A DNA stretch of 64,000 nucleotides. Source: Mobula hypostoma. Its lineage: Eukaryota. Within the stretch, counting starts at the first letter, position 1; every line of letters begins with the position of its first letter. Made by a program: the position numbers and the translations under genes. Location of the stretch: contig NC_086097.1 of NCBI RefSeq assembly GCF_963921235.1, positions 154,010,001-154,074,000 of the forward strand, in the 5' to 3' direction. The notes under the pieces were generated by a model, which was not told the DNA's origin, made no database searches, and saw only the letters and a list, made by a program, of their open reading frames with translations. Positions 15,541-63,606 of this stretch are shown in pieces.

Positions 15541-16490
15541 ATGATCAGATGCTGACCATTCTATTTACCAAGGGAGGACTCCTGTGTGATCCTGGCCACA
15601 GTTCACATACTACCATCGGCCGAATGTTATCAGGCACTTGAGATACTGCATGCTGCCCTCACTAAACAAGAAGCAGTCCACTCAAATCATTTCATTCATA
15701 GTCAGGGACTTCAACTAGGCTAGTTTGGGGAAAAAAAACTCTGTCCAATTACCATCCCCATATAATCAGTAGCACCAGAGGTCCCAACACGTTTGATCAA
15801 TGCTATACTGGGATAAGGAATGCCTGCCATTCCATGCCCAGACTGCACTTCAGGAAATCTGATCACCTGGCTGTCCTTTTCCCACCTGTTTATAGGCAGA
15901 GCCTAGAGACCAAGGCACCAGAGATGAGGACAATGAAGAGGTGGTCTCCAGAGGCAGTAGAATGAATACAGGATTGCTTTGAGTCACTAGACTGGGCCAT
16001 GTTCAAGGGCTCATCTGTGGATTTGAATGAATACACTTCCGTTGTCATGGCCGTTATAAAAACTGTCATAGACGAGTGTGTCCCCACAAAATCATTCAGA
16101 GTCTTCTCCAACCAGAAGCTCTGGGTGAGCCAAGAGATCCACGATCTGCCAAGGGCCAGATCAGTGGTATTCAGATCTGGCGTCCAAGTAAAACACAAGA
16201 GGTCCAGGTACAATTTTTGGAAAGTCATCTCACAGGTGAAGTAGCAATTCTGGACTAAACGTGAATCAATGAAGGATGTTCGACAGCTGTGGCAGGGCTT
16301 GAATGCTATTACCTCTTACCAAGTGAAATCAATCAACAAAGGTGACAACAGGGCTTCACTTCCAGATGAGCTCAATGCCTTCTGTCCCGACTTTGACCGC
16401 AAAAATATGAAGGATCCTTCATGAACTCTCATAGCTCCCAATGAGCCTGTCACTGAGGTCGACATGAGAGCATCCTTCAGAAGGGTGAAC
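15541..16490 (+). mobile_element. Rex1/Babar LINE internal fragment (endonuclease-RT linker)
   Basis: gggacttcaac (GDFN), ggaaatctgatcac (GKSDH), CVPTKSFRVFSNQKLW, LPDELNAF. Confidence 0.88.
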
Positions 16491-17485: not shown

Positions 17486-18020
17486 CTAGCAAAGTGCATG
17501 ACCATGCTTTTCCAACATTGTATTTCTTTTGTCACTCCCTTGCCCATTCTCCAAATGTTTCTAAGTCCTTCTGCAGCCTTCCTGTTTCCTCAACACTTAC
17601 CCATGAGCTGCAGGCAATGGTGGTGGAGGCGGATACGATAGGGTCTTTTAAGAGACTTCTGGATAGGTACATGGAACTTAGAAAAATAGAGGGCTATGGG
17701 TAACCCTAGGTAATTTCTAAGGTAAGTACATGTACGGCACAGCATTGTGGGTCAAAGGGCTTGTATTGTGCTGTAGGTTTTTCTATGTTTCTATGTTACT
17801 CCTCAATCAAACTTCGTATCAGCTGCTAACTTGGCAACAAAGCCATCTATTCCATCTTCTAAATATACAGCATAAAAAGAAGCAGTCCCAACACCGACCA
17901 CTGCGGAACGCCACTAGTGACTGGCAGCCAACCAGAAAAGGTTATTTTTATTCTCATTCGCTGCCTCTTACCAACCAGCCAATGCTTTAACCATGCCAGT
18001 AACTTTCCTGTAATAATATA

Positions 18021-18230
18021 GCAACATACATCAAAGTTGCTGGTGAACGCAGCAGGCCAAGCAGCATCTATAGGAAGAGGCGCAGTCGACGTTTCAGTCC
18101 TGACGAAGGGTCTCGGCCTGAAACGTCGACTGCGCCTCTTCCTATAGATGCTGCTTGGCCTGCTGCGTTCACCAGCAACTTTGTTGTATGTTGCTTGAAT
18201 TTCCAGCATCTGCAGAATTCCTGTTGTTTG
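18021..18230 (+). mobile_element. Penelope-like terminal insertion with inverted 5' arm and 15-bp TSD
   Basis: TSD cctgtaataatatag at 18007-18021 and 18231-18245. Arms 18021-18097 and 18118-18194 match 76/77. Confidence 0.88.
18095..18132 (+). ncRNA. Minimal type I hammerhead ribozyme motif
   Basis: cagtc CTGACGA agg-gtctcgg-cct GAAAC GTC gactg: helix I cagtc/gactg, intact core, helix II AGG/CCU, loop-less palindromic helix III (ACGU). Predicted cleavage after C18127. Confidence 0.8.
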
Positions 18231-18374
18231 CCTGTAATAATATAGGTTGTTAGATATCTGGCGACCAAGTAAAATACAAGAGGTCCAGGTACAATTTTTG
18301 GAAAGTCATCTCACAGGTGAGGTAGCAATTCTGGACTAAACGTGAATCAATGAAGGATGCTATGGTTTGTTAGA

Positions 18375-18627
18375 GATGCAGCACTGGAGGTCGTTCCTGC
18401 CTGTGGCCATCGAACTTGCAGCTCCTCCCGTGGAGGGTCAGACACCCTGAGCCAATAGACTGGTCCTGGACTTATTTTCCATCTGGCATTGTTTGCATTT
18501 TGTTGTTTGATTGTTTGTAGTTTTTGTATTGCTATATTTACGCTCTATTCTTGGTTGGTGCGGCTGTAACAAAACCTAATTTCCCTCAGGATCAATAAAG
18601 CATATCTATTTATCTATCTATCTATCT
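18375..18627 (+). mobile_element. Rex1-type LINE 3' tail with (tatc)n
   Basis: ggtcgttcctgcctgtggccatc (RSFLPVAI)...aataaagcatatctatttatctatctatc. Confidence 0.75.
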
Positions 18628-20789
18628 GTTAACTTGGTAAGCAGCCTCATGTGTGGCACCTTGTCAAAGGCCTTCTGAAAGTCCAAATATACAACATCCA
18701 CAGCATCCCCTCTATCTATCATACTTGTAATATCCTCAAAGAATTCTAACAGGTTCATCAGGCAAGATTTTCCTTAACAGAAACTATATTGACTTTGTCC
18801 TATCTTATCTTATGTCACCAAGTACTCCATAACCTCATCTTTAACAGTCCAACATCTTTCCAACCACTAAAGTCAGCCTAACTGGTCTATAATTTCCTTT
18901 CCCCTGCCTTCCTCCTTTCTTAAGGGAAATAATATTATATCCAGATGGTTATTATGGATTGTCCAATCTATTTATTATTATTTTTGCTCTCTCTTGTATT
19001 TGCACAGTTTGTTGTCTTTTGCACACTGATTATTTGTCTGCCCTGTTGGGTGAGGTCTTTCACTGATTCTTTTATCTTTTGTGGATTTACTGAGTATGCC
19101 TGTAAGAAAAAGAATCTCAATGTTTTATATAGTGACATAAATATATTTCTATAATATATTTACTGTGACCTTTGAACTGTACTAAGAATAGCTGAAGTGG
19201 AAGAACTTGATTTTGAACCTGGAAGTCTAGAGTGTGCCCATTGGACGATGAGGTGTTGTTTAGTTTGAGCTTTGATGGCACTGTCTAGAGCTACGTGACA
19301 GGGAATTGAAGTGACAGGTAGCTGGAAGCTTTTGGTCACCCTTGCAAACAGAATGTTTTGAAGAATACATTAAACCACCTAGCATAGGCATTGTCTCCTT
19401 TTGTAAGAAACCATAGTGTTTTAAAAAAATTGTTCATGGGATGTAGGTATTGCTGGCAAAACAATTAATTATTTTCCTTTGAAGATTTTATCTGAGAGCT
19501 CTGGCACACCTGAGTCTAGTGCTACCTACAGGCTAGTCAAGATAAGATGGGTCAGCTTCTTCCCAAAAATATAAACTTTAGATACCAAGTATAACCAAGT
19601 AAATCAGTGCCTTACTGCAGAAAGTGACAGAGCTAAAGGAGAAATGGTTCAATGAGTGTTTGGACAAATAGAGGTAAGTAAGGTTCTTAGGGCTCTATTC
19701 AATCATTGATCAGAAAGGGTAACCTTGTTCTTTTCTTCACATTCTGTCTGACTTGCTTCTATATGAAGGAATTGAAAATAACCTTATGACTTCATTTGGT
19801 AATTGGATGGGCAGTAGAAATTAAAGGTAGGAAATGAAATTAAAGGTTTAACAATAGCAGGCTATGATAAATGGTGCTCTGAAGGATTTGAACTGGAGTC
19901 TCAACTTTGCAGAATAAATGTGTGACTTGTGTTGATGACGAGAGATGCATTCATTACCATCATATCCAATTATTTAGCAATAGCAACATAACAGGAACAT
20001 TCTAAAGTTGTTGAGTGTTATCAAACAAAAACTTGATATTAATCCACAGCAGAAAATAATATCAGGCATCAAAAGCTTAGCCAAGAGGTAGGTCTATTAG
20101 CAGGTGGAGAATAATTCAGTTCGTGCTTGTCTATTTTGATAGAGGATTGGAAACTTGAAAGTCGATTCAGAAGGGAGAAAAGCTTAGTTGGAAGTGGAAG
20201 ATGGAATTTCGGTTGAAGAGTTAAGTAGGGAGGTAAAAGAAAATGGTGAAGGCCTATGACAGTGATACTGATTATTAAAGATGATCAGGAAAGGACCAAG
20301 TATACAAGCATAGGAGTACACTAAAATTTTGTCAGATAAAATAAAACCTGTAGTTTATTTATCTGAGTACAGACAGCATTCTTCACATATAGGTATAGTG
20401 ATGACATATGGTTCGGTAGCCATTATGCAGATCGTACCACGGACTATCCACCATGCAAAGTGGATAATGCATAGTGTGTAACATCTCTGAAGAATATGGA
20501 AGAAAATAGTCTCTGGGTAATTGATTCATGAAGGTTGAGAACAATCCAAAAGTGAAGAACGATATTGGCTCGAAAGCTCGAGCTGTAGAATCATTTTAAA
20601 CAGCGAAGAAGACTCCCCCCCCCCCACCCCCCATGTTCATGTCATTAGATTTGGGTTGAGGGTAGAATATTTGGTTATGAAAATACTGTCTGAAACAAAA
20701 GCAATTACAATGGTATGAGGATAGGGGAAAAATATATAAAATGAGAGATGGGTAATTTGAGGAGAGGGGAAGTCACGAGAATACATACT

Positions 20790-21599: not shown

Positions 21600-21840
21600 G
21601 ATGAGATGGGGAGAATCAGCTTTTCCCAGAGAGTAGTGAATTTGTGGAACTCTCTGTCCAGGGCTGGCAACCTCATTAAATGTATTAAAAAGACAGTTGA
21701 ACAGATTTTTTGCAAATGAGGGGAAATTAATGATTATGGAGAAAATGCAGGTTGGTGGAACTGAGTCACAGCCAGATTAGCCATCTTATTGATTGGCAGA
21801 GCAGGCTTAATAAACTATATGGCCTACTCCCGATCCTAAA
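21600..21840 (+). mobile_element. CR1 3' fragment abutting the Gypsy 5' LTR
   Basis: cccagagagtagtgaatttgtggaactctctg...ggcctactcc. Confidence 0.75.
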
Positions 21841-22069
21841 TGTGGTAATGTGAGCATTATTAAAGGTAAGTTAATACTAATTAGGATAATGGGGAGTTCT
21901 ACTTCCATTCTTTTTACTTCTGGTGTGCTTTTATATACAGTGTGCCTGCCATGCCGTACGGGTTCTAAAAGCCTCTGTATATACCTATCGGTTTTGATGT
22001 TCGAGATAAAGTTGTTTCTTTAGGCACAAAGTTGTCGAGTGTGTCTTTTTCAAAGTAGAAGTTACTACA
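21841..22069 (+). repeat. Gypsy 5' LTR
   Basis: tgtggtaatg...gttactaca. Aligns without gaps to 26057-26285 with 24 substitutions by manual count. Confidence 0.96.
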
Positions 22070-22075
22070 AATTTT

Positions 22076-22086
22076 TGGCAACGAGG
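22076..22086 (+). promoter_or_regulatory. Primer-binding site, probably tRNA-Ser
   Basis: tggcaacgagg just after the 5' LTR. One CpG-type change from TGGCGACGAGG, which is complementary to the 3' end of tRNA-Ser(GCU). Confidence 0.7.
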
Positions 22087-22159
22087 TGAACTGGTTTTGT
22101 GGATGTGTCGGTGCGTTTTGAACGGGAGAAGCAGCACCGATAAGGGCCCTCACATTCAG

Positions 22160-25100
22160 ATGGCTACATTTGGGACTATCGGTGATTTTGTGGAGTTAAT
22201 GGAGGACTGGCCGGAGTATGTTGGGACACTTTTTCTGTGCTAATGGAGTTACTGAGGAGGCTAAGAAGCACTTGATTCTCCTGAGTGTGTGTGGGGCAAA
22301 GACGTACTAGCTAATAAGGAATTTAGCCATACCGCGGAAACCGGGGGACATTCCATATGATGAACTGATCAAGCTCATGGGAAACCACTAGAATTGGAAA
22401 CCTTCTGTGAAAGTCCAACGGTGTAAGTTTCACAGCCGTTTCAGGAAGTCAGGTCAGTCTGTGGCCAATTTTGTGGCCGAGCTTCGGCAGCTGTCGGAGC
22501 ATTGTGATTTTGAATCGGTGTTGGAAAACATGCTCCATGATAGATTGGTATGCGGCATTAATAATGACGGCGTACAACACTGCCTGTTAGGGGAAACCCC
22601 ACTGTTGACTTTCAAGAAAGCCTTAGAGATTGCCCAAGGCATGGAGATGGCTGCTAATAATGTCAAGGATATCCAGAAAGGACATGGGGGGTCGCACCAA
22701 GTCAGGAGGGAGACTGGTAAACAGGCAAAGCGGGTGGAATGTTTCCGGTGTAGAGGGAAGAACTATGCAAATGATTGCAAATTCAAAGACACTGTCTGCC
22801 ATTCTTGTTGCAAAAAGGGACATTTAGCTAAAAAGAGCAGAAGTTGATAGGGTAAGATTAAGCCTGGGCAGGGGAAAGCTCAACAGGCTCAGGCAGCCAC
22901 ACAGCATCTAGAAGATGCAGATGAAGAGGCAGCCTGTGCCTACAACGTGTTTGCAGTGGAAACAGATGAGGAACCACCTGAACCGTATTATGCCACAGTC
23001 ACTGTCAGGGGAAAGGACATTACGTTTGAGATTGATTCAGGGGCTACTGCATCGGTCATTAGTGAGGAGACCTACAGGAGGAAACGGGGGGTCCAACCTG
23101 CCTCCTACCAGACCATCAAATCTCAAACTCAGGACCTGTACGGGGCAGCCCATACCTCACTTAGGGGTGTTATATGTGGACATTTCAGCCGGGGGTCAGA
23201 AGGCTGAAGCCAGGCTAGTGATAGCTAAGGGCAGGAGGCCCAGTCTTTTGGGTTGCGATTGGCTTCACAAAATCCGGCTAAACTGGCATGAAATTAAGTA
23301 TCCACACACGACGGAGGACATTCTGCAGTGGTACAGTGACGTTTTCAGGGACGAGCTGGGAACACTGAAGGGCGTGACAGTGAAACTCCATGTCGACCCT
23401 GAGGCTACACCATGTTTTTTTAAGCCCAGGTCGGTGCCCTATGCCATGAAGGGCAAAGTCAAGGAGGAGCTGGAACGTTTACAGAGGCTGGGCAGTATTG
23501 AGCCCGTCCAGTTTTCAAGGTGGGTGCTCCCATTGTTCCTGTTTTGAAGGCAGACAAAATGGTGAGGATATGTGGGGATTATAAGCTTACAGTGAATCAG
23601 GTCTCTAGGCTGGAGGAGTACCCATTGTCACAGGTGGATGACCTGTTTGTGACCGTCAGGGGGTAAGCTGTTCACAAAGCTGGACATGAGCCACACCTAC
23701 AAACAGCTGCTGCTCAACGAGGATTCAAAGGAGTACGTCACAATTAATATGCACAAAGGATTATTCAAGTAAATCGCCTGGTGTTTGGAGTGGCGTCCAG
23801 CCCTGCCATTTTCCAAAGGACAGTGGACACTTTGCTACAGGAGATTCCACACGGAGCAGTGTACCTTGATGACATTTTGATCACGGGGGCTACGGAGGTG
23901 GAGCATCTGGTTAATTTAGAACGGGTGCTGAAGAGGCTCTCAGACGCAGGGCTGCGGTTGAAACGCAGAAAATGTGTATTCCTGGCATCAAGTGTGACTT
24001 ACCTGGGACACAAGATCACAGCTGAGGGGCTTTGCCCTGTGGAGGACAAAGTGAGAGCTATTAAGGAGGCCCCAAGCCCCAAGACCGTCACGGAACTCAG
24101 ATCATTTTTGGACATGGTGAATTATTACGGCAAGTTTCTTCCTGATGTCTCAAGGGTTTTGACCCCACTGTATAAGCTGCTTCACAATGACACTAAGTGG
24201 CAGTAGGGTGAAGTGCAGGAGAAAGCTTTCAAGGAAGTGAAAGAACTCTTCCACTCAGTGAAGCTGCTTGTTTACTATGACCCAGACAAGGAGATCACCC
24301 TTGCATGCGATGCCTCGCCCTATGAAGGTCAGGGCTGTTCTCTCACATGTAATGGAGGACCGTTCAGAGAAGCCTATTGGTTTTGCTTCACGTACCCTGA
24401 CAGCTGATGAGAAGGGATATTCACAGCTAGACAAAGAAGGTCTGGCCATTGTTTTTGCAGTCAAACGCTTTCATCAGTACCTTTATAGAGGCATATTTAC
24501 AATTTATACAGACCATAAACCACTGATGAGCCTGTTCAGTGAGACTAGATGCATCCCATCGCTAGCCTCAACCAGGATACAGCGTTGGGCTGTTACATTG
24601 TCAGCTACCAGTACGCTATAGTGGGGATATAGCGGGTGGGGATAATGCAAACGCTGATGCACTGAGTCGGCTACCTTTACCTGAGACACCTGTTGCTACA
24701 TATGTGCCTCCAGAGACTGTGTTTTCATTGGAGAGGCTGTCAGAGACACCTGTAAAGGTGACCCAGATCAAGCAGTGGACACAGAGGGACCCAGTCCTGT
24801 CCCAAGTCAAACTTTTCTTTTACAAAGTTGGCCCAGAGTCATGGAAGGAGAGGAACTGGGGCCTTATGCCAAATGCAAGACAGGACTCAGTCTGCAGGAT
24901 GGCTGCATTTTCTGGGGGGGCGAGGGTCATCGTGCCTCCCCTGGCTGTTCACAGATTGTGGAGGAAATTCATGAGACTCATCCAGGGGTGTCGCGAATGA
25001 AAAGCCTTGCTAGATCCTACATTTGGTGGTCAAGAATGGATCAGGATCTGGAGAACAAGGTAAAATCATGCACGCAATGTCAGACTAATCAGAATATGCC

Positions 25101-25821
25101 ACCACCAGCTCCTTTGCACCCATGGGAGTGGCCAGACCACCCCTGCTCTAGGCTACATTTGGACTTTGCTGGCCCTTTTATGGGGCAGATGTTTCTTGTA
25201 ATGGTAGATGTGCATTCTAAATGGATCGAAGCTCACATCATGAGCAACATCCCAGCCCCCTCAACCACAGACAAACTCAGGCAAGTGTTTGCAGTCCACG
25301 GGTTGCCTGACACTCTGGTCACTGATAACAGCCCGACGTTCACCAGTGAGCTGTTCGGTAAGTTCATGCCGCAGAATGGCATTCGTCACATTCGGACGGC
25401 CCCTTTCCACCCAGACTCCAATGGTTTGGCTGAGCGGGCTGTTCAGACAGTGAAGGAAGACCTGAAGTGGATGACAGAGGACTCTCTTAGCATTTGGCTT
25501 CCACGTTTCCTGTTTAAATACTGCCTCCTCCTCATGCCACAGACTACGACTGCCCGCACTCCAGCAGAGATGCTGGTGGGGCGTAGGCCCAAGTCAAGAT
25601 TGGACCTGCTGTGCCTGGACATGAAGGCAAAAGTGAGACAGACTACTGCGGAAGCATGTCCACCAGTGACTTTGCCAGAGGGCGAGACGCTGGCAGAGCG
25701 GTCGGGGTCCCCTGAGGAGGATGGACATTCTCACGCAGACACACAGACCCCTCTCAGCCCCCAATACCAGACCCACCCAAAACACCATCACCAGCGGTGC
25801 CTGCGGGGTCACCATGGGTAG
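22160..25821 (+). pseudogene. Gypsy gag-pol, disrupted by stops and frameshifts
   Basis: Starts MATFGTIG. Contains degenerate zinc knuckles (CFRC.../CHSCCKKGH), protease FEIDSGATAS, RT YLDD, RNase H LACDAS, and integrase HHCC (HETHPG...CTQC) plus DDE core (LHLDFAGP, VTDN, AERAVQ). Confidence 0.95.
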
Positions 25822-26056
25822 TGCGCAGATCACAGCGCACTGGTAAACCTCCTGACAGACTGAATCTTTGACAGGACAGTTTTTTTTGTTGTTGTTAGAT
25901 TGAATGTTGAATCTGTCATGTTTTCCAGATGTTTTGTATTGGTAAACTGTTGCTGAGATACTACTATACGTTTCTAGGGGTATACAAGTTAATAACACTG
26001 TTTTTATTTCCTAGTTTTTTACATTTTGGGAATGTTGGATTTTAAAGGGGGAGAAG

Positions 26057-26285
26057 TGTTGTAATGTGAGCATTATTAAAAGTTAGTTAATACTAATTAG
26101 GATAATAGGGGGTCCTACTTCCGTTCTTTTTACTTCCAGTGTGCTTTTGTATATAGTGTTCCTGCCATGCCGTACTGGTTCTAAAAGCTTCTGTATATAC
26201 CTGTTGGTTTTGACGTTTGAGATAAAGTTGTTTCTTTGGGCATGAAGTTGTTGAGTGTGCCTTTTTCAAAGTAGAAGTTACCACA
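26057..26285 (+). repeat. Gypsy 3' LTR
   Basis: tgttgtaatg...gttaccaca, preceded by the polypurine tract aaagggggagaag (26044-26056). Confidence 0.96.
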
Positions 26286-28520: not shown

Positions 28521-30440
28521 TAATTCCAGGTAACTCTGCTCATGCTCTAGTCTGGCATTTCAGTACAGCATTTCCCAAGATACACTGTAATGACTGGGAT
28601 TGTAAACTGAAGACCTGTCTACATCTTAAGCGGATTTCAAAGAAACTCTGGACTATCTGGGTAGGATCTGATAACTTAAAAATTTGAACAATATTGCACT
28701 GGTAACTTGGAGCATAAAAGCTCTGCAACACAAATGGTAAATTATACGTTTATTCCTTTGATAACTCATTTACTGTTTGTACTAAGTTCACTGTTAACTG
28801 GGCACCATTGACCCCCTCAAAAAAGATCAGCAAAACATCTTTGAACATTTTCACAGTCCTGTTGAAGGATTTCATTACACTGTTAAAATGATAACATTTT
28901 GAAGACAGCTGGTTGGTGGCTGAGCTCTTTGCAGATTTCTGGGATCATAAAATCTGCCATAAAAATGCCTTCCTTTCTTCCATTAGGAGAAAAATACAGC
29001 CTGAAGTAGATAACAATGAATGGATTGTGACAACATTTTTGACATTTTACAAGGAGTGAGTAAAAAGGACTTTTGTGGCTCTATTTATTTCTAGTTCCAC
29101 CCCTTTCCCTCAACAACCAACACCCCACCGCCGACCACTTCCGCTTTATCTAATAGACTTCACGCTCGAGTTGTTTTTTATTTGATTTCCAGAAGAAATC
29201 AACAGATGGTGAACAGCATAAGACAAGACAGTGAAGCCTCAACAGATTTGTTTTGCTTTTCTTCTCAAAGCATTTTGTGATATCACTATTCTAGATCCAT
29301 AAGGAAGGAATTAACATTGGTAACACTGGGATTTTTCCTGGTTTGTGTCATTTAAAACACATGCCACTCTGAGTCACCTGTTGAACGCAGAAGACTTAGA
29401 TGGACTTTCCATTTTTTTTTAAACAAAGCATGTTTTATTTAGCACTTCTCAGTAAGAATTATAATACAGCCAATAATTGGGAAGTCAGTAGATACATTGC
29501 ACATCGCTAGTTGGATCTATTATGTCTTGTTGTAGCCAGCTATATGACCTAATTAAATGAGAAGAGCATCTTGCATGGATTTCCTTTTGAATTAATTTAA
29601 GACAAAGTGAAATTGTGTGTTAGAATATTGCAGTACCTCCAAGTGATAAGAGAAAAACAATTTCCATAAATTGCATTAAATGCAATGGCAGTTATTACAA
29701 GATTATTAAATCACAAGCCCATTTCTGTCCCTGAAGGAAGTCTACAGGTCACAGGGGGCAACTCAGCTCTGCCGGCTAATAATATCTTAAATTAGGTGTT
29801 GAGCAATTGCAGCTGACAAAAAAAAACTATTGTAAGAAATTAATTATAATGAACTTGTTAATTATTCTGTTATTCAGAGGTGTCAAATGGAAGAGTGTAA
29901 TGACAGAATTCAGACAAGTAAAGGAGCTTTATATCTTCTGAACCTCACCAGGGAACTTCTCTCACTGTGTGTAATGGGAAACCAATTTCTTCTGGGCAAA
30001 ATATTGTCAATTTTGTATTCAAGAAAGTGTCACTTTCATTACAGTTTATTCCGGAACTTTATTGTTTCTCAGCATTGCATTGAAGTGAACAGGATATCCA
30101 TGGCTTTCAATCATCCTTCCAACTTCTCTGGGAATTTAATTGTAATGCTGCCTTTTCAGCAACAACCCCCTACCCTTCTTCCCATGCATAAGCCACACTG
30201 ACTTCCCCACTGCCTAACCAAACTCGCAGAGCTTCTTACAATTTCCAGGCTGTACCTCATTCTCCAATGGCTTTGTTTGATGCACTAGACACACTTTAGT
30301 GCATTGTGAAAACTTCAAACTGTTCAGCTCGTGTTGCTATGAAAAGCAAATGTAATATTACAAGAAGTGGCCGAAAAAAATTTGTGTCACAAACAGCTGC
30401 CCCTGGGGAGTTCACCTAGAACAAGAAACACCAATTTCCT

Positions 30441-30720
30441 CCTGTCCCATGATCCTCTCATATCCCCTTTGCCAATCACCTGTCCAGCTCTTGGCTCCAT
30501 CCCTCCCCCTCCTGTCTTCTCCTATCATTTTGGATCTCCCCCTCCCCCTCCCACTTTCAAATCTCTTACTAACTCTTCCTTCAGTTAGTCCTGACGAAGG
30601 GTCTCGGCCTGAAATGTCGACTGTACCTCTTCCTAGAGATGCTGCCTGGCCTGCTGCGTTCACCAGCAACTTTGATGTGTGTTGCTTGAATTTCCAGCAT
30701 CTGCAGAATTCCTGTTGTTT
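30441..30720 (+). mobile_element. Penelope-like terminal insertion with hammerhead motif and 13-bp TSD
   Basis: TSD acaccaatttcct at 30428-30440 and 30721-30733. Motif agtc CTGACGA agg...cct GAAAtGTC gact at 30587-30622. Confidence 0.88.
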
Positions 30721-31170
30721 ACACCAATTTCCTTTGTCATGCATGAGTTTCATTAGGATTTCAAGCAGGAAATTAAATGATTAACTTCAGTTTTCTCACC
30801 AATAGACACTTGATATTAGATTTAGTCTGGAACAGATTTGTCTGGTGGCTATTTTCAGGTGAAATCAGCCCTTCAAGAAGTAGGACAGACCACTTCCGTG
30901 TAACTGTTTGTGTTCGACTTCCTGATCTTTGTCCAGATGCACACCTAGGGCTGTTACTAGTTGTGCAACACTGATCTCCTTCCTGATTGGTTTAAAATGG
31001 CACTTTTGAGTACAACTAGCAAATTTGCTATTTTTGAATTCTTTTCTCTGTCTGTTAAAAGGACAGTCTGCAGCTTCACAACTCACAACAAAACGCAGGC
31101 TGTTCAGATGCCTTCCAAGGGCCAAAGAATGCTTAGATGACCAGGGACTGCTCCTTTCATTACTTTCTTT

Positions 31171-32084: not shown

Positions 32085-32590
32085 TGAACACAAGAGATTT
32101 TGCAGATGCTGGAAATCAAGGGCAACTTACACAAAATGCTGGAGGAACTCAGCAGGTCAGACAGCATTTTATAGAAATGTGATAGGCAGGTGATGAGAAG
32201 AGGTAAGAGGGAAAATAAGGGAATAGAAGAAGAGGGGAGGTGGAGGGGGAAAATTTACCAGAAAGAGAAATTGATTTTTATGCCATCAGGTTGGAGGTTA
32301 CCTAGACAGTGCTGCTCCTTCAACCTGAGAGTGGCCTCATTGTGGCAGAAGAAGAGGCCATAGACTGACATGTCAGAATGGGAATGGAGATAGGAATTAA
32401 AATGATTGGACACCGGGAAACTCTACTTTTTATGGATGGAGTGGAGGTGCTTGACAAAACGGTTCTCCAACTTATATTGGGCCTCAGCAATGTAGAGGCA
32501 GCGGGACAGGATACTGTAGGTGACTTCCAGCAGATTTGCAGATGAAGTTTTGCTTCACCTGGTGGGACTGTTTAGGGCCCTGAATGGAGC
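32085..32590 (-). mobile_element. Penelope-like element 3' portion (decayed GIY-YIG region and terminus)
   Basis: gatgctggaaatc...ggaggaactcagcaggtcag terminus. ggtctcca/tattgggcctc...atgtagagg and caggatactgtag resemble the GIY-YIG-coding part on the minus strand. Confidence 0.65.
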
Positions 32591-32921
32591 TTTTCCCTCA
32601 TTAGGGAGAGAGAGAGAGCTTGTGGTATGTTGAATACTGGGTGAACAAGTTGTCTTTGGGGTACTGCATCTGTGTCTTTATTAATGCTTTGCTGCATGCT
32701 TGAGTACTTAGTGGGGGGCACCAATGCTTTTTTGTTGGTGGGGGAGGGGTGTTGTTGCTTTGCTGTTGCTTGTGTGTGTGGGGGGGCTTTGGGGTTCTAA
32801 CTGTCATTCGTTCTTTGGGACACTCCTCTGTTTTCATGGATGTTTGCGAAGAAAGGGAATTTCTGGATGTATATTGTATACATTTCTCTGACATTTAATG
32901 TACCTGTTGAAACCTATTGAA
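32590..32921 (+). mobile_element. 5'-truncated copy of the ~800-bp Rex-tail family
   Basis: Matches 40600-40945 (ttccctcattagggagagagagagagc...catttctctgacatt). Confidence 0.85.
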
Positions 32922-43640: not shown

Positions 43641-46600
43641 AATGTGAATATTGGTTGCAATATTTTATATTTCAAGTTAAAGGATATTTACTATATAATA
43701 ATTTTCTATGGAAATTACAAGAGAAGAGATACACACCTGTTTTATAAGTAATTTCTAGTTAGGGACACAGACAAACAAGTTATAAAAAGTTATTTCTGTA
43801 TGAAAAATCAACCTTTCCACCTACATCATCTCGCAAAGCAGAAAACTGAATTGGAACCTGAAGGAAGGTGGGAGAAGGTTCAGCTATTTAAGGCATTATT
43901 TAGTTATAGATGAGCATTTGTAATATTGATTCTCCTCATGTATGAACAGATTTAATAAAAAAAATCTGCTAAAGTCTATCAACAAAATTCTTTTGAAGGT
44001 ATCTCCCATCAGGGAGACTGATTAAAGATAACTGGAATGGTATCAATTATCTGCATAAGAGAAGCTGGAAAAAGAGCTGCTAATGAATTCAAAACAAGAA
44101 ATACTCTGCAGGTCAGATTGTATCCATGGAGAGCTAAAGATGGATAATTAATGCCTTGGATAAATGATCTTTCATCAGAATTCATCAATTCTTCTTGTTT
44201 AATGATTTCACTTGCCAGTGGAAACATAAATGATAGATAACTATTGCCAAGTTTAGCTTACTCTGATGTATTGAAAGACAACACAAACTGCAAATAAAGT
44301 AAGCCAAGAACTTTATTCAATTTGTACACAGAACACAAGCCACCACGAATGATGCAAAAGCAAATGTAGAAAAATAGTAGAATCATATTGGTATTGATGA
44401 TTATCCATTCTGTACAGTTTTACTCAAAATAAATAGATTTCCATCTTGCATTGACATCAGTGTATACAATAAACCAATGCTTCCATTTACATGAATAAAG
44501 GACTGGAAATTCCTTGGTGCTACTCCCGCATTACTTCACTTGAATGATATGAATTACATACACCTATTCTGCCCGCAACTCCAAGGAAATTCTCAAAGAC
44601 TGAACACCCCACCTTGCTTTTTATCCAATCTGTTAAATCAATCAGTTGTGGTGCTTGCTCCAAAATGATCAATTACCATTAAGATGATTGGATATGGTTT
44701 TGGCAGAATTTCAAAATGCTAGTTGCTTGTAGATTGCTAATATGGTTCTCTGCACACAATGCACCTTTAATATTAAGGGTAGGATTCTGGGAAGTATAGA
44801 TGGCTTTGCTAGTGATAGCACTTTTGACATGTTACAGAGCCAAGTCAATATCTGTAAATCCTGAATCAAAAAAAGAGGTGCGAATATTGGAAATCTGAAT
44901 TTAAACCCAGAATTAAGAGGAAAGGTTAAATAGCATCTGGACTTGAAAACAAATATATTAATCATTAATTTCTTTTTGTAAACTGTCTTGCTCAGAATAT
45001 TACAATTTCATGTTCTCATTGACCTGCTCTCCATTATGAAGAATTTCCTGCTGAGTGAGAGTTTCATTCCTGACCTGTGGTGTGCTCAAATACTTTTATG
45101 TAGTTTGAAAAAATGCTTAGCCTCTTTAGTTGAAAGGGAAAGTCCAGGCATAATTAACTTTTAGACTGACAATAAGACTCATTTATGTGATGATTAAGAA
45201 TACAGGCAAAATGGGCACCAGGCAAGTTTAAAGAGAATAGGGTGAGGAAAGATGAAGATAATAAGAAGCTTCCTTTTGCAACTTGGAAGTTACAAGTGAA
45301 AGTGAAATTTAAGTATATAAAGTTTGACAATTTTGAGCTGTTGCAATTTTTGATATGGCTGATTTCATAACTTGAACATAGGGAAAATTGTACAAAATGG
45401 TGAATTATGGGATTAGAAGATACAATGGACAATTTAGAGAAGAAACACATATGCTGCAGTAGGCAGAAGAGGGAAACACTGGATAAGAAAGAGCGGGCTA
45501 CCATTTGTCATCGGCTATGTAATGGGATCTGTAGGAGATAACAAGATATAAATGAAAAGAATAACAAAATCCAGTCTGTTGGTCCATGTAATGTGAAGCC
45601 TTTGATTAGGAAGATTAAAATGAAAAGCTGCTATCTAATAGATGAATGTCTCTGGTAATAATTTAATCACAGATTCACCTGTGACCCAGCACAACGTATT
45701 TGGGTTATTGTAGATCATATGTGAAATTGTGAAAAGCTCACTTATTGTTTCCAAATTTGAAATGGGTTGAGAGTTCATGTCTCATTCAATTTACTCAAAT
45801 TTGAACCAGGATTGCTGGTTTTTGTAAAGTGCACATCCTGTCTGCTTAGTGACAAGGCTAATGAAATTTCAAGATGTAATTTCAACATGTGGCAAAATGT
45901 CAAAGTGTGACAAAGGCCCAAAGAGGCATGAGATAATTTGTAATTGCTCCAATGAAATGTTAAAAACATCATTATAAAGCAATAAATGCTAACATTAATT
46001 GGTTTAAAGTGTTAAATAAGAATGCATTAAAAGCCTCTTTATGACTTTTTTCATTTTATTGAATATGCAGATAAATCTTGCTAGCCTTCACTATAGTTAA
46101 TGAATATTGCTTTGTTGATATTGACATTGTATAAAACAGGGGAAGCTGCAGATCCCTTTATGCTCTATTTATGAGTATAATCCCAGATATATTCTTAAAC
46201 CCTCAAGTAATGGGTCTGCTGCACAACTTAACACCATTCTGACAGGAGGGTAACCAGTCCATGTAAGAAGTCAGAAATTCTGAGACCTTACAGAGAGGTT
46301 GACGCTGCAGTTTCAGTGAATCCAGCAATGCTCACAACCAATTTGGGACAACAAAATATGTAGCCCATCAGGCAACAATGCTTCAATGACCTTGCCATGT
46401 CAAACGTGAGGCAGCTCACTGAGCTCCTTCTTGCCGTTGGATTTAGTAAATAGCCCGGTTGATTGTGTCTTTAACCGCGACACCCACACACAAAAAAAAA
46501 TCAATACAAATTGACAGGCAGAAAAGAACGTTAAATGCAGCCACTACTCCTCATAATGGTTTGAAATTGAAATAACCACACACACTCAGCAATGGGCATC

Positions 46601-50798: not shown

Positions 50799-51140
<342 letters not shown>

Positions 51141-51409
51141 TTATCAAATCAGCTTAATGTATTTTAATTTACAAACTCTGGATTTGCAAAGTATCAGATT
51201 TTAATAACAGAGGAATTGCAGACTGAGAAATGGTCATGAAAGTGCACCATATCCTTTCTTGGTAATTGTAGCAGTTGACTAATTGTCGTAATCAATTGTC
51301 CAAACAGATACAGGCATGATATGAAATCAAAACCTTATTGCAACCTCAGGTTCAAACTTCTGTGCATGCTGCACTTACCATGTCATCACTCCACATTGTA
51401 TTTTAATTT

Positions 51410-51650: not shown

Positions 51651-52048
51651 GCGCTCAGAAAAGTAAGAGGGTTTTCATAAGGAAAAAGTAATTGGATTTG
51701 CATTCACTGTCCACAGATTAATTTTGAATGCCCCCTTGTGAATTACAGGTTCTTGCTATCAGTCATTCTGTTTGGGATAAAGTGAAATCACTAACCACTA
51801 CCATGGAGCTTAAATGGGGCAACAAATTAAAATAAAATTACCCTCATCTTTGTTTTCAGCAAGAATATGACGAGATTCCAGGATCCTGTATCAAGTTAGT
51901 GAATGACTAGTAAAAGACAAGAGTTATAACCGTAGCTGTTATAACATATTTGCCTTGGTTGTTATCTATAATCACAGGAATCAATTGTGGGCGGGCTTTT
52001 CCTCCTCTATTTCCATCACTCCCCACCATTCGGTAATGGTAATCATGT

Positions 52049-52130
52049 CCTGAAGAAGTGTCTCAGCCTGAAACGTCGACTGTTTACTCTTCTCCGTTGA
52101 TGCTGCCTGGCCTGCTGAATTTCCAGCAAA
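52049..52130 (+). mobile_element. 82-bp Penelope-like hammerhead-bearing insertion with 10-bp TSD
   Basis: TSD gtaatcatgt at 52039-52048 and 52131-52140. Insert begins cCTGAAGAagtgtctcagcctGAAACGTCgac. Confidence 0.85.
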
Positions 52131-52601
52131 GTAATCATGTTTTACTTTCTGGGAAACTACAGATGATGGGCAAAATGCACAATATAATAAACTGTAACGC
52201 TGAACCAAAGTAGAGGATAAACTAAGCCTGGATGCCAGGTATCCAACGTTGTTTAAAATGTCTTAGACACCAAGGGGAAGGAAAATTGACAATGGTAGTG
52301 AGCTCTGCTGCTGTGATGTTCAAGCAATGATTTACAATGAGGGATTGAGCAGCCCAAGTGAAATAAGAGGAACAGTTGCTGGACTATTATAATAGGATTG
52401 ACACCAAATTGGGATGCAAGTGAACTCAAACATATTATCATGATGTCCCTTCCCTGTCCTTTGCTCTCTCAATATTCCTGTAATAGGTATTTTAAACCCT
52501 GTTACCCAAGCACTTGTGCTCCCCTAATTTTTGCATCAATTTAAAAAGTAGCAGTAAAAGCTTATGAGGCTTGCAGACCAAAAACACAAGAAAATTATTC
52601 A

Positions 52602-55849: not shown

Positions 55850-57505
55850 TGATGACTCAGCAATAGTTGTGTGTATAATGGGAGGAAGAGAGGATGAATA
55901 CAGAGCCCTTAAGGAAGACTTTGTCAAATGGTGCAAGCTGAACCATCTGCAGCTCAACATCAGTAAGACAAAGGAGATGGTGATGGACTTTAAGCCTGCA
56001 TTGCTTTCTGTTATTATTGATAGTGTGGATGTAGATATGGTGAGGACCAACAAGTACCTGGGCTGCACCTGGGTGAAAGACTTGAGTGGAGGACTAACAC
56101 AGAGACTGTGTACAAGAAGGGCCAGAGTCACCTCTCGTCGTCATCGTGGCTATCCCTCGAGGTCGAGGATGATGGTCTTCATTCTGTTGATCTACTTGTG
56201 GGCTCTCAAGTGGCTTATGAGTCCAATCTTGACTTTGAAAGTTCTTCTGCATTCAGGACAGGTAGTTCCAGATGGCAGATTGGGCTTTCGTTGTTGCTGC
56301 CTCTCTTTCCATTTTCTTCTCTTTTCTTCTAATTCTGCACATCTGTTGGCTTCGGAAGTTGCTGTTCCTTCTTGGATGATGGCTCACCAGAGTTTCCTGT
56401 TCTTGGCATTGGTTTCCCGATTGTTGATGTCGATGTTACATTTCTTCATGTTGGCTTTTAAGATGCTTTTGAATCTCTTCTGTTGTCCGCCTCTTTTACA
56501 TTTGCCTTCTTTAAGCTGGGATTAGAAGATTAGTTTTGGCAGATGTTCTTCTTTCATCTGAACATGACCGCTCTATCTTAGTTGGTTCTTGATGACGAAG
56601 GCTTCAATGCTTGTTGTTTTTGCTTCATTTAGCACACTGACGCTGGTTCTTCTATCTTCCCAGCTTATGTTTAAGATGTTTCGAAGACAGCGTTGATGGA
56701 ACTTTTCAAGTGCCTTCAGATGTCGTAGGTATGTTGTCCAGGTTTCTGATGCGTACAGGTGCGTTGGGATTACCACTGCTTTGTACACTAACATTTTGGA
56801 GTCTGTTCGGATGTCACGATCATGAAAGACTCTTGTTCGGAGACGTCCAAAAGCTGTTCCAGCACACTTTCTATATCTTGGAAGTCATTTCTCCTCCAGT
56901 GTCGGCCTTAATGACGAGATCCACCATTGTCTTAAATGCGCTGGAACAGCTTTTGGACGTCTCAGTCGCCTCTTTTTCCTGAGCAGACAGGTCATTTAGA
57001 GTATGCAGGCCTCTCATTCACATGTCCTACCAGTCTGTTGTCACCAGTACAATCTTCGATGCAGTAGTGTGCTGGGGCAATAGCATCAACAAGGGTGATG
57101 CCAACAGGCTCAATAGACTGAATAGAAAGACTGGCTCTGTTATAGAAGTTAAACAGAACACACTGGACACAAAGGACCCTATGGAAAATGCTGACAATTC
57201 TGGACAACGTTTCTCACCTTCTGTATGCCACCTTGACTAAACAGGGGAATACTTTTAGTAATAGACTAAGACAACTGTGCTGCTCCAAAGAACGCTATAT
57301 GAGGTCATTCTTACCTTCAGCCATTAGGCTCTATAATGAGTCAACCTTTAGTCATGGAAGTGATGACCACCTCCTGTTAGACTGTGTATGGTAACTTATT
57401 TTTTATTCTTTCTACTAGTCTTCTAATATTTATATCTGTGCACTTTTAATGCTACTGTGACACTGTAATTTCCTTGCGATCAATAAAGTATCTATCTATC
57501 TATCA
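55850..57505 (+). mobile_element. Rex1/Babar LINE 3' fragment nested in CR1
   Basis: WCKLNHLQLNISKTKEMVMDF, KKGQS|RLF split by the RTE insert, RYMRSFLPSAIRLYN; (tatc)n tail. Confidence 0.9.
56136..56963 (-). mobile_element. RTE-clade LINE with 5' inversion, nested in Rex1
   Basis: VYKAVVIPTHLYASETWT, FHQRCLRNILNISWEDR, IGLISHLRAH. TSD agtc(a/g)cctct at 56126-56135 and 56964-56973. Confidence 0.9.
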
Positions 57506-60437
57506 TCCTCCGGCACCGCACCAATGGCTAAGGATATTTTAAGCAATCTCTGCACACTAGCCTCTCACAGGATCCAAGGGGACACCTTGTCAGACCCTGG
57601 GGATTTATCCACCCTAACTTGCCTCTCAACCTGAGGATCAAATCTATCCATAATTGCCTTGAAACAAACGTCAAAATGATATCTAGGTTCAAAGTGTTCT
57701 CCTACAAAAACCTCTGTCAACTTTCCTGCTTCATTCCCTAATAGGAAATCTAGTATCACACACTCTATTGTTGCAACTTCAATGTATGACTAAGGAAACT
57801 GTTCTGAACACATTTGACAAACTCTGTCCCATCTAATCCTTTTACAGTATTGGAGTCTCAGTCAGTACGTGGAAAGTTAAAATCTCTTACTATAACAGGC
57901 TTAAATTTCTTGCAACTGTCTGCAATATCTCTACAAATTTGCTCTGCTATATCCCACGGACTGTTGGGTGGTCTACAATATAATCCCATTAATGTGGTCA
58001 AGGCTTTTTTATTCCTCAATTCTACTCTTAAAGCCTCACTAGATGAGCTGTCCAGTCTGTCCTGGCTGAGCATTGCTGTGACATTTTCCTTAACTTGTAA
58101 CGCCACCCCTCCCCCTTTGATTCCCCTTGCTCCATCACATCTAAAACAATGGAATCCCAGAACACTGAGCTGCTAGTCCTTCCCCTCCAACAGCCAAGTC
58201 TCACTAATGGCCACAATGTCATAATTCCATGTGCTGATCCATTCCCTAAGCTCATTTGCCTTTCCTACAATACTCTTTGCACTGAAATATACACAGCTCT
58301 GAATATTAGTCGCACCATACTGATCCTACTCATTCTTTTGATTCTAAACTTTCTATGTAGGCTTAGCAACATCTTTCTCCTCAACCACTCTACTATCTGT
58401 TCTGGCATTCTAGTGTTCTAGTTCCCATCCCCTGCAATCTAGTTTAACCCCCACCCATGCAGCATTAGCAAACCTTCCTGCTAGGGTATTAGCTCCCCTC
58501 CAGTTTAGGTGCAAACCCTTCTCTAGAGGTCCCACCTTCCTTGGAAGAGAGTCCAAAAATTCAAAAATCTAAAGACTTCTCTTATGCATCATCTCCTTAG
58601 CCAACTGTTAAACTGAAACTGTATGATCTTCCTATTTCTGGCTTCATTGGCACATGGCACGATCACAATTCTGGAAGCCCTGTCCCTTGACTTGGCACGC
58701 AATTCCCTAAACTCACTTTGCAGGACCTTGTCACTTCAATGCAAGAACTTGGATCAATTTGCAACTGGTTGCATTGATGATCAGTAACAGGCATTCATAG
58801 ACAATGCTCAAAATACTAAGATGGAAACCACAGTTCCCAACACCCTGCTCCAGTACTGTTCCTCAGTTACAATCCTAACAATTCACATCTCATTGCACCA
58901 GTGTGACATTTATACTTTCCACATCAGAATTGTCATGGCCTCTGCAAACCAGATTGTCAATTTAATAGCCCAGTATCACAGAGTCATACAGTAAAGGAAG
59001 AGACCCCTTGGTAAATCAAGTCCATGCTAACTCATCTATGCTTTTCTCATTTACTAGTACATATTCCTTAGCTTCTGTTACCTTGGTGATTCACATGGTC
59101 AGCTAGATACTTTTATTTTGTGTTTCTACCAGCTTCTACCATCTACCATCTACTCAGACTGTGGGTAATAATAGCTTCTGGCTGTGGGCTTGCAGATACT
59201 GGAAGCTGAGTTTAAGCTGTTCAAAATTAATTTCACTATGAGCCACAATAACCCAGGAAAAAGAAAGGCAAGTAATTTGCTGAGCGCAGTATTCAATCTA
59301 TTCTGTTCTCATTATTGACACGATGCATGTGCACACCACTGGGGAAAAAACAGAAACATCAAATCACAATGAAGGACTGGTGAAAATTCCGGGTTCCTTA
59401 TTCTTAGTGGGTTTGCAGCTTTGAACCAAGCCTCACGGTTCAACTAATAATTCAGCTATCAACAACTGAAACATATGTCTAATTTACTAAAAAAAAACAG
59501 GCCAGGTGCCTCCTTTTGAAAATGTGTTATTGATTGAAGAAACTGTTCATGTAATCAATGCTGGCTAGATTTGATGACACAACAACCTCAGCTGTGTGAA
59601 GTAATTTATTGTACCTGATGTTTTTGGAGATTTGACTGTTGCGTTGAGCATCATGAATTTCTGTATTTTAGGAAAACCTCTGAAGTTCATTCACTCTATG
59701 GGCAGTAAATTATTTGGTAGATATTGAGTTTAAATTGCCAGGTACCCCAACAAAGCCAGGCTCAGTTTGTGCATATGCTATGCCACACTTACTACTGCAG
59801 AAAGTCAGAAGGTGCTTTCTTGGTCTGTCTCCTGACAGAATTTCAGCTGATTTCACATGCCAGATATTTCAAGACAGTTGTTGTGACCTTTTTTTTTATT
59901 AGAAGTAATGAGTTTTGTCATGCAGATTACATTACATCTTGGTGAATAACAGTTAATAAAACTGTCAGTGCAACATTTATTGCTGCATGATATTGTGCAT
60001 CTGTCTCAGTTTTTTTTAAAAACAGATGCTCCTACTTTATTAGAACCTACATAATATTTACATACATATGCATATAAATGGCTGCCATTTAAACCTCTAT
60101 TTCAAATTTAAAGATGTATATTGACTTTACCAATTTGATTAGTAATTTTGTTCTGGAAACCTTCTGACAAAAGTCAGAAGGCTGCATTCCAGCACAAAAA
60201 TCTAGGTGACTTCAGGACACAGGGAAGTTCAGTAGCCGTTTTCTCTTTCCCTCTCCAAATAACTCCTTTAACACAAATTTCTTATTATAATTGATCCAGC
60301 GATATTCAATGAAAGCCTCATGTGCCTTTGTTTCCTCCAGAATATATCATTCGAATATGCATTTGTGGCTAGAGTTTCAAGTTCAATAACAGGCCATAAT
60401 GTGTAAAAGCAACACTTCTAGACAAGAATATGAAGAG

Positions 60438-60620
60438 AAAATGCTGGAAACACTCAGTAAGTCAGGCTGCATCTGTCAAAAGGAATAGAATTCATGTTTC
60501 AGGTGAAGTTTGATGAAGGGTCTCAGACCTGTTTCTCTGTCAACAGATGCTGCCTGACCTATTGAGTGTTTCCAGCATTTTTATTTCTTATTATTTGAGA
60601 TTTTCAGCATCTGCAGTAAT
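60438..60620 (+). mobile_element. Old Penelope-like insertion with inverted 5' arm
   Basis: Arms 60438-60476 and 60543-60581 match 36/39 and flank a truncated tgatgaagggtctcag. Confidence 0.75.
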
Positions 60621-61190: not shown

Positions 61191-62121
61191 AGCATATGTA
61201 GCAAACCCCCATTCAGTAAGTACCTTGATTGAAAAGATTAATGGCCGATTTCTTTTTACTTGTTTTACTTAATCTTCGTGTGTTTAATTAAGTTCTATTT
61301 CTGAACTACGTTTTAAATTCCTATACTCAGGGCAATGTGAAAATAACAATTATCCAGCCAGCACATCTTTGGTATATAATGGGAAACCTGAGTACACACA
61401 GAGAATGAGCCTCCTCCAAACAGACAGCAGCAGAGGCCAGGATCAGGCAGGTCAAATACAGCAGTGCAGCTCTCGATGCCGTCTTTCACTGGGAGCTTTT
61501 TACTCAGCATTTACCCAAGAGGACATCCCATAGTGACTTTCTCAGTGTAATCACTCCACTGCACTCAAGGAATAATTTTAAGAATGGTGAGACCCCAATC
61601 CCAGGTTCACCAACTCTCATATGTAAAACAATTATTATATATTTGTGAATAACTATGACATTCATAGTCAGCAGTATGTTCTATTAATAAAAGGAAACCT
61701 GCCTAAAATGTATACACATCTTTTTCTCAGTAAAGAAAATCTAAAAAATTTGCAGCTATTCAATTAAATAATCATTATCTCAGTGAGAGGGGCTACTGTG
61801 CCTGTGCTGGGTTTGACCTGGTGTCAAGCAATTTCCTATGGAGTTCACGCTGAGAAACCCAGCAGTGAGGGCACAGGGGTAACCAGCGGGATAGGAAGAA
61901 CCAGCAGGGTAGTTGGAAGTTCACAAATTGCCACTGCCAGCTTTAGTCTTCACAGGAACCTGAACACTGAGTAACCCTGGGCTAACACTCAATTACAGTC
62001 CTTGTCACTGACGTAGGAACGCAAGATCCAGCACAAACATCTTAGACATTTAAAAACAATCATAACCAAAAATAATTGCAACCTATAACAGTTACAAACA
62101 TAATAAAGATATTACATTTAA

Positions 62122-62189
62122 GATATTGCGTTCACCAGCAACTTTGATGTGTGTTGCTTGAATTTCCAGCATCTGCAGAATTCCTGTTG
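62122..62189 (+). mobile_element. Very short Penelope-like 3' terminus with 12-bp TSD
   Basis: TSD tattacatttaa at 62110-62121 and 62190-62201. After five extra 5' bases (gatat), the insert is identical to the end of the 30441-30720 copy. Confidence 0.85.
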
Positions 62190-63606
62190 TATTACATTTA
62201 AAACTTTTTTCTAAAAGTCATTATCTAATTCTTACCATGGTCTCTCACAACGGTCTACTAAATGTAAAGTAATGGGGAATCTTTCTTTACACTATACCCA
62301 ACCTGGCACAGGATGTTGATGAAGATTCCCATTGTAAATTGTGGGGAATCGCTGAAGCCTCTTATTTCCATGGTCTGTATTAACAACACTGCTGGCAAAA
62401 TAATAGTAAACCATTCACAGCAACTTCTGGATTTCTATGCTTCTGTGTATATGTGTGAAAATCTACCAAATGTTGACAGATTTTTCACTAGTTTTGCTGA
62501 CAGTTCCCTGCAAAACCATGGGCCACGCTTCTTATTGTCACTATTCATTAATTGCTCATTCTAAGGTGTTCTACCAGTTGAGAATGCAAATTGTGTACAT
62601 ATTTACTTTTTTGGAGTATGATTGAGTTGCAATTTGTTCATGATTGGTAGAACACTTCATTTTCAATAGGACATTGTATGAAGCAACCAGACCTTTAATC
62701 TATTGCTGAATTTCTGAAACATGCCAGCACTGAAATCTCTGACAGCATTACATATACCTTGAAGGAAGTACTGATAGATTCTATGGAGAAATTATTGAAT
62801 TAACTCTACACAATTATAAAACCTGAAAAGTGTAAATATGCTTCTTGCTGACTAAGCCCCATAGTACTTAGGATACACGACAAATGAATTAGATTTTATA
62901 TGCTGTGGGAATAAACGGATAATTGTTTAAGCCTGCGTTAAATTGTTCAGCATGTCATATTCTTCTATTGAATTAACATATGGAATACCTGTAAGAAATT
63001 CTAAAATGGATTTGAGTTATGATTCAACACAATGAGAATTAATTGTCAGGTTTGAACTGCTACCTTTTAAGAGATAAAGTGAAAGCATGGTATTAAACTT
63101 TTGAGGGAGGACAAAGCTATCTGGGCTTTGAAAGAGAAAACAGTCTCAAAATTGCCTGAATTTGAATGCAGATGTCGGATGATGAAAGTATGAATTTCAA
63201 AACTCACTGTTGTTGGTTGGCTTCCAAACACCACCAATTAGTGATGCATGAGATGAAGATCCCCTTGAATGGTATGCTGTAGGTATGAGAACACCTGTGT
63301 ACACAACTGTAGTTATTTGCTTTCAAGGCAAAAATAACTAATGAGGCTGTAATAAGAAGGAGTAAAGCAGAGCACACACTACGTAAAACACAAAGGCTTA
63401 TCTCTGGCCAGCATCCATCTGGAAGCTCTGTTCTGCAGGATCCATTGCTTGCAAGCCTTGTGCACCCAGGCCCACACTATCTTCAAGGCTCCATTCTCCA
63501 GGGACATGTTTCATTTGACATCTCCAACCCTCTGACCCCAAGTATCTTGCCAGCCAATGCTCTAAACCAGCCCCAGCCTAGTCCCATTCCCAGCTTCGTA
63601 CTTCTA

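Follow-up and report, generated by a model that had tools for sequence, protein, structure and literature searches.

At 18007–18245 of the window (the whole stretch of DNA analysed, 64,000 nt) we identified a fold-back insertion in which a forward and an inverted copy of the same element end meet head-to-head at a 2-nt AG overlap (18096–18097), the point at which the forward homology begins (Table 1). Direct alignment confirmed the arms given in the original prediction, 18021–18097 being the reverse complement of 18118–18194 at 76/77 positions with a lone mismatch at 18031/18184; a repeat search stretches the arms to 81 nt at 98% identity. Also reproduced were the 20-nt loop between the arms (18098–18117), which holds the CUGACGA half of a hammerhead core (CTGACGA, 18100–18106), and the 15-bp target site duplication (TSD), whose copies 18007–18021 and 18231–18245 are identical and cannot be extended on either side. 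A 36-nt tail (18195–18230) without inverted counterpart separates the right arm from the TSD; it went unmentioned in the original prediction and is the most diagnostic part of the unit. TSD and element overlap by 1–2 bases: the AG at 18020–18021 pairs also with 18194–18195, and family contigs continue through 18231. The insertion itself is without an ORF. Folded as RNA, 18007–18245 has an energy of −171.8 kcal/mol (z = −22) that was matched by 0/200 shuffles. The DNA hairpin of the unit has −107 kcal/mol, a value uninformative on cruciform extrusion, which requires supercoiling.

Table 1. Coordinates of the fold-back unit, its surroundings and related TSD-bearing copies in the window.
Feature	Position	Strand	Remarks
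Decayed LINE reverse-transcriptase fragment (host)	17810–18015	−	resumes at ~18629
TSD, left copy	18007–18021	.	AT-rich; final AG pairs also with the forward-arm end
Inverted 5'-truncated copy of the Penelope-like element (PLE) end	18021–18097	−	from the helix II 3' strand to the tail boundary; holds GAAAC-GTC, lacks the CUGA box
AG microhomology at the head-to-head junction	18096–18097	.	part of a 4-of-5 quasi-palindrome with 18115–18119
Forward 5'-truncated copy of the PLE end (pseudo-LTR 3' part)	18096–18230	+	95% identical to 30587–30720
Putative minimal type I hammerhead motif without helix III	18096–18131	+	predicted cut after 18127; published descriptor (PMC4209133, available text)
Spacer between the arms, 20 nt	18098–18117	.	
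Right arm of the inverted repeat	18118–18194	+	bears the one derived change (18184)
One-sided tail, 36 nt	18195–18230	+	missing from the inverted copy; compare PMC8557442, PMC11167929 (available text)
TSD, right copy	18231–18245	.	
Older insert (earlier split of the LINE fragment)	18240–18628	.	includes a 104-bp, 97% copy of 16175–16278; ATCT repeats at its end
Other TSD-bearing copy	30428–30733		TSD 13 bp
Other TSD-bearing copy	62110–62201		TSD 12 bp
Other TSD-bearing copy	51087–51152		TSD 11 bp
Other TSD-bearing copy	52039–52140		TSD 10 bp

The target of the insertion was the junction of two sequences, the first 9 bp of the TSD continuing the decayed LINE frame and the last 6 bp belonging to the older insert. 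Since it spans two unrelated sequences, the TSD is best read as a true target duplication. From its motifs we take the host LINE fragment to be of CR1/L2 type; its short pieces had no Pfam match. The segments 16175–16278 and 18256–18359 are direct copies of each other (104 bp, 97%, 2081 bp apart), and the latter, placed on the 5' side of the LINE-splitting insert, resembles a locally templated patch. The window further contains an LTR retrotransposon at 21838–26285, presumably Gypsy-like, whose terminal repeats of 232 bp are 89% identical and whose gag-pol-like frames are broken, and a small inverted repeat at 56840–56963 with 30-bp arms that are 93% identical and 64 nt apart. A weak NUP210_Ig Pfam match at 45157–45507 (minus strand) lies below the cut-off and, after translation and a blank structure-sequence search, was attributed to chance.

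The forward copy has ten other matches in the window with identities of 74–97%, of which 30587–30720 (95%) and 62127–62190 are the closest. Flanking direct repeats of 10–15 bp were found at 5/10 family copies tested (15, 13, 12, 11, and 10 bp), and no TSD at the other five. The copy at 52049, too, starts 1–2 nt upstream of the CUGA box, and the copy at 51098 extends scarcely beyond the tail. In contigs, AT-rich sequence follows the family 3' end. An older copy (32097–32177, within the minus-strand region 32097–32591), from which the hammerhead segment is deleted, continues upstream into a broken frame (32261–32591), read as the C-terminus of a GIY-YIG endonuclease, that finds 79 homologous proteins. 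Twelve of these were scanned and six had a GIY-YIG match (above the cut-off in two); one homolog consists of RVT_1 followed by GIY-YIG and aligns back to the frame (tblastn, E 1e-9). The endonuclease fragment by itself had no Pfam or PDB match and was placed via these homologs, and tblastn with 9 of the 79 homologs as queries found no PLE reverse-transcriptase fragment in the window. Because this related copy is joined to a GIY-YIG frame, the family appears to be the end of an endonuclease-positive PLE, a link that runs through an older subfamily (~80% identical over 84 nt) and not through the locus's own. The family patterns had 0 matches in viral, genome, and metagenome collections (four scans). 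The unit combines a head-to-head inverted 5'-truncated copy, a one-sided tail within the 30–40-bp range, an AT-rich TSD and, indirectly through the related copy, a link to an ORF with reverse transcriptase and GIY-YIG. Arms, 36-nt tail, TSD and the GIY-YIG link of the family all support the original reading, in which the unit is Penelope-like, has a 5' repeat in inverted form and is flanked by a TSD.

Three other classes were considered and rejected. In a MITE, terminal inverted repeats abut both TSD copies, and here the right arm is held off the TSD by the 36-nt tail. As a microRNA precursor, the unit gave miRNA matches far under the gathering thresholds (e.g., 45.6 vs 92 bits) and the scores of a generic hairpin. 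Non-LTR retrozymes are defined, in the available text of bioRxiv 10.64898/2026.07.22.740005, as head-to-tail tandem arrays in which every unit carries its own complete type I hammerhead, whereas this unit is head-to-head and has one complete core.

At five positions the two arms agree with each other and differ from the closest sister copy (30587), which points to one template or source locus. Private variants of the locus lie at 18133, 18134, 18145, 18155, and 18188. The mismatch between the arms is a derived change in the forward arm, and the inverted arm retains the family base. This single change among the 184 duplicated bases of the locus shows the youth of the insertion, not selection. 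Taken as a whole, the unit very probably goes back to one fairly recent retrotransposition event of an abundant Penelope-like element, and codes for nothing.

The hammerhead assignment was made by pattern with the published minimal descriptor (PMC4209133, available text) and not with Rfam, which found no hammerhead at the gathering threshold in the whole window and none at E ≤ 10 in 17800–18500. The motif comprises helix I (18096–99/18128–31), the core (18100–07), helix II (18108–11/18116–19), and GAAAC-GTC (18120–27), and between 18100 and 18127 contains CUGANGA, GAAA, NUH, and a palindromic 15.2–16.2, with no helix III. In place of the conserved G10.1–C11.1 pair, helix II is closed by a G18108–U18119 wobble, which the inverted arm and the 30587 copy have as well. 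The inversion junction had been predicted to fall within the ribozyme; this holds for the inverted copy, which is cut inside helix II, and not for the forward copy, whose ribozyme is complete in sequence and has the junction at its 5' edge. In the unit, the hammerhead geometry can be imposed at a cost of 31.3 kcal/mol, compared with 4.0 kcal/mol in the forward arm alone and 8.3 kcal/mol in the uninverted copy at 30587. The predicted sequestration of the ribozyme is borne out by this comparison of folds, and burial in a plus-strand transcript of the unit is well predicted. The same effect had been claimed for a transcript of either strand, but a CUGANGA box, and therefore a ribozyme, is missing from the minus strand.

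Whether burial would switch anything off is probably moot. Because monomers are reported inactive, helix II closes with a G-U pair, and a tandem partner is missing nearby (the next same-strand core is 12.5 kb off and mutated), the monomeric motif is probably already inactive, with little activity left to lose. In the available text of PMC4209133, single minimal hammerheads showed no detectable in vitro cleavage and dimers showed little; the PLE ribozyme of the anole cleaved only with the element's protein and was dispensable for insertion, according to the accessible part of PMC11167929. We infer that the unit has no function and is most likely a by-product of insertion, the burial of the ribozyme being a side effect and not a switch. 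Just upstream of the hammerhead of the longer copy, 30567–30588 holds a branch-point-like TACTAAC, a pyrimidine tract, and two AG sites. For the Penelope of D. virilis, an intron that ends at helix I is described (PMC4209133, available text).

The structure suggests how such a product could arise. The GIY-YIG endonuclease of the element would have set staggered nicks ~15 bp apart in AT-rich DNA, as judged from the TSD. Reverse transcription would then have halted ~135 nt in, on reaching the 5' edge of the hammerhead; the end position can be read from the DNA, and the stop itself is presumed from it. A second, inverted copy, 36 nt short of the 3' end, lies joined to the first at the 2-nt overlap and would have been made in the same event. 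Two routes may have led to it. In the first, which we rate just short of an even chance, both nicked strands would prime, each from a different one of the two start sites flanking the tail, and their products would anneal at the AG. In the second, which we hold possible at somewhat lower odds, the first cDNA would fold back and prime itself, as is proposed in the available text of PMC3846280. A hairpin at the cDNA 3' end is predicted exactly in the register of the junction (pair probability 0.30–0.39); it is weak (−2.4 kcal/mol) and ranks 14 of 210 possible cDNA ends. Self-priming by itself does not explain the stop at the tail boundary. Two-ended priming fits the 1–2-nt target overlaps at the outer ends as well as the published data on the element PAc, whose tail is bounded by two reverse-transcription start sites and which cuts and extends both strands at an AT-rich target (PMC11167929, accessible part). 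In the parts of PMC8557442 and PMC3846280 available, the origin of the inverted ends of PLEs is called unresolved. A passing transcript of the finished insertion would form a 77-bp hairpin that buries the ribozyme motif.

A second fold-back, at 60424–60620, belongs to a related subfamily and is older, with arms that are 70% identical. In the alignment, its inverted arm ends in the column of the tail boundary, as at 18021–18097, and begins in nearly the same column. The forward copy there begins at a CUGA-like box, and its GAAAC half is lost. Further joints were taken from contigs of four DNA runs from two organisms, and the best-supported 15 of 381 joints were evaluated; two of these lie in flanking repeats and were left out. 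The remaining 13 lead from an inverted arm of 22–56 nt into a forward copy, several of them at identical coordinates in both organisms. Eleven of the 13 land at 18095–18111, overlaps of 2–3 nt occur in 8 of the 13 (14% expected by chance), and no joint among the best 15 of 381 falls at the predicted cleavage site (18128). In these eleven joints, at this locus and in the second fold-back, the forward copy begins within ~16 nt at the 5' half of the ribozyme, not at its cleavage site. The reference contains no family sequence upstream of 18096 and 18118–18194 fits two places, so that the clustering of joints may partly be a detection effect; individual joints may be short-read fold-back chimeras, and contigs give no copy numbers. 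For the family sequence upstream of 18096, the copy at 30587 served together with loose ends, 91 in run X1 and 88 in run X2. The upstream regions of seven copies had no mutual similarity above shuffles, so that the start of similarity at the core in older copies may mark the limit of homology and not a truncation.

It is conceivable, if rather unlikely, that the hammerhead region sets the point at which the reverse transcriptase stops and turns, with the folded motif, a bound protein, or an upstream splice-acceptor-like site halting the enzyme and offering a self-priming hairpin. If this were true, the many fold-backs would amount to a naturally recorded map of how Penelope elements insert, and would form a large pool of short hairpins. 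No study of where junctions lie with respect to the hammerhead in cartilaginous fishes turned up in the main texts of the literature searched (mostly open papers); supplements may hold such structures.

The original prediction went further and proposed that the hairpin, when transcribed, would silence its ribozyme and could feed Dicer or ADAR against the whole family. The near-perfect 77-bp stem with its −171.8 kcal/mol, the 31 kcal/mol that hammerhead geometry would cost, and the many such fold-backs in these genomes are all compatible with this idea, and inverted Penelope repeats do give siRNAs in transgenic D. melanogaster (PMC3681739, available text). The Dicer part of the idea is accordingly not new, and the siRNAs published there for Drosophila Penelope silenced inefficiently. 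No host exon or transcription unit was found with Pfam in 40 scanned frames of the window's 274 frames of at least 60 aa, the ribozyme is limited to one strand and of a monomeric type reported inactive, and the low divergence of the duplicated bases reflects youth and not selection. We consider a functional hairpin of this kind improbable.

The inverted arm could also be a later addition to the inserted element, made at its quasi-palindrome by break repair or by template switching during replication, a route with which the AG overlap inside that 4-of-5 quasi-palindrome and the shared private variants, as expected from copying in cis, would agree. The arm lies entirely within the TSD, however, and ends at the tail boundary, at the column where the inverted arm of the independent fold-back at 60424 ends too. 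There is no reason why copying in cis should halt there and spare the TSD, which counts against a post-insertion origin and makes it very improbable. Perfect inverted repeats are a known class of assembly artefact, and the junction of this locus is spanned by none of the listed contig pieces; nor is there a joint that skips the insert (empty site) among the best 15 of 381. A fold-back chimera of the assembly is nevertheless hardly credible: the arms differ at one base, at which the inverted arm has the family base, the TSD is intact, the arm stops at the tail boundary, an old copy with the same layout is present at 60424, and the unique left flank (17914–18000) is exact in contigs of the DNA runs X1 and X2. 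Equally remote is the creation of a new monomeric hammerhead of type III topology by the inversion (palindromic GTCGAC, with the left arm giving GUC at 18085–87 and stems I and III), for which all required pairs can be drawn (stem I of 3 bp, stem II of 4 bp, stem III into the long helix) and which was rejected on energy (15–33 kcal/mol): the penalty is 33.3 kcal/mol for the full-length transcript and does not drop below 15.3 kcal/mol for any of the 6 prefixes tested, with a stem I of only 3 bp and helix II closed by G-U.

The preferred reading therefore stays that of a single retrotransposition product. As a single locus it is of little weight; its value is that of a clean, young specimen with an exact TSD, a tail boundary, a junction overlap, and private variants. 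With many siblings in the genome beside this specimen, junction counts could help to decide between self-priming and two-ended priming. What deserves to be kept in view is that junctions cluster at the 5' edge of the ribozyme; as a mechanism, we regard this as rather unlikely.

L1 elements leave 5' inversions by twin priming, with an inverted 5' part inside one TSD and microhomology at the joint. In L1, the inverted part is the sequence upstream of the forward part, whereas here it duplicates the forward part and so yields an inverted repeat. The insertion pattern described here is already published for PLEs, and the locus is its shortest form. PLEs typically leave an inverted 5'-truncated copy and a one-sided tail of 30–40 bp (PMC8557442, PMC2377424), and Pen2a-type insertions of Adineta vaga have TSDs of 8–10 bp, head-to-head copies, and palindromic junctions (PMC3846280), as far as the available texts of these papers go. 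The unit shares with these inverted pseudo-LTR insertions (Adineta vaga Pen2a, D. virilis Penelope) the head-to-head copy, the tail (36 here), the TSD, and the junction palindrome or overlap. It differs from them in having no ORF left and only 135 nt of forward and 77 nt of inverted sequence, and its TSD has 15 bp instead of the 8–10 bp of the rotifer insertions. With the minimal hammerheads of metazoan PLEs, as described in the available text of PMC4209133, the motif has in common CUGANGA, an extra base before helix II, GAAAC-GUC without helix III, a palindromic ACGU, and a short helix I, and differs in its 4-bp helix II with a G-U pair, the missing tandem partner nearby, and its burial in a hairpin. 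Both the unit and the green anole Poseidon element PAc (PMC11167929) have a tail between two fixed positions, an AT-rich target, and a hammerhead just upstream; PAc was studied in vitro as a full element, and inverted products are not described for it in the accessible part of that paper. The Drosophila Penelope copies that yield siRNAs (PMC3681739, available text) are likewise inverted copies and a potential source of dsRNA, with long repeats transcribed from the promoter of the element, whereas the repeat described here is 77 bp long and known from DNA only.
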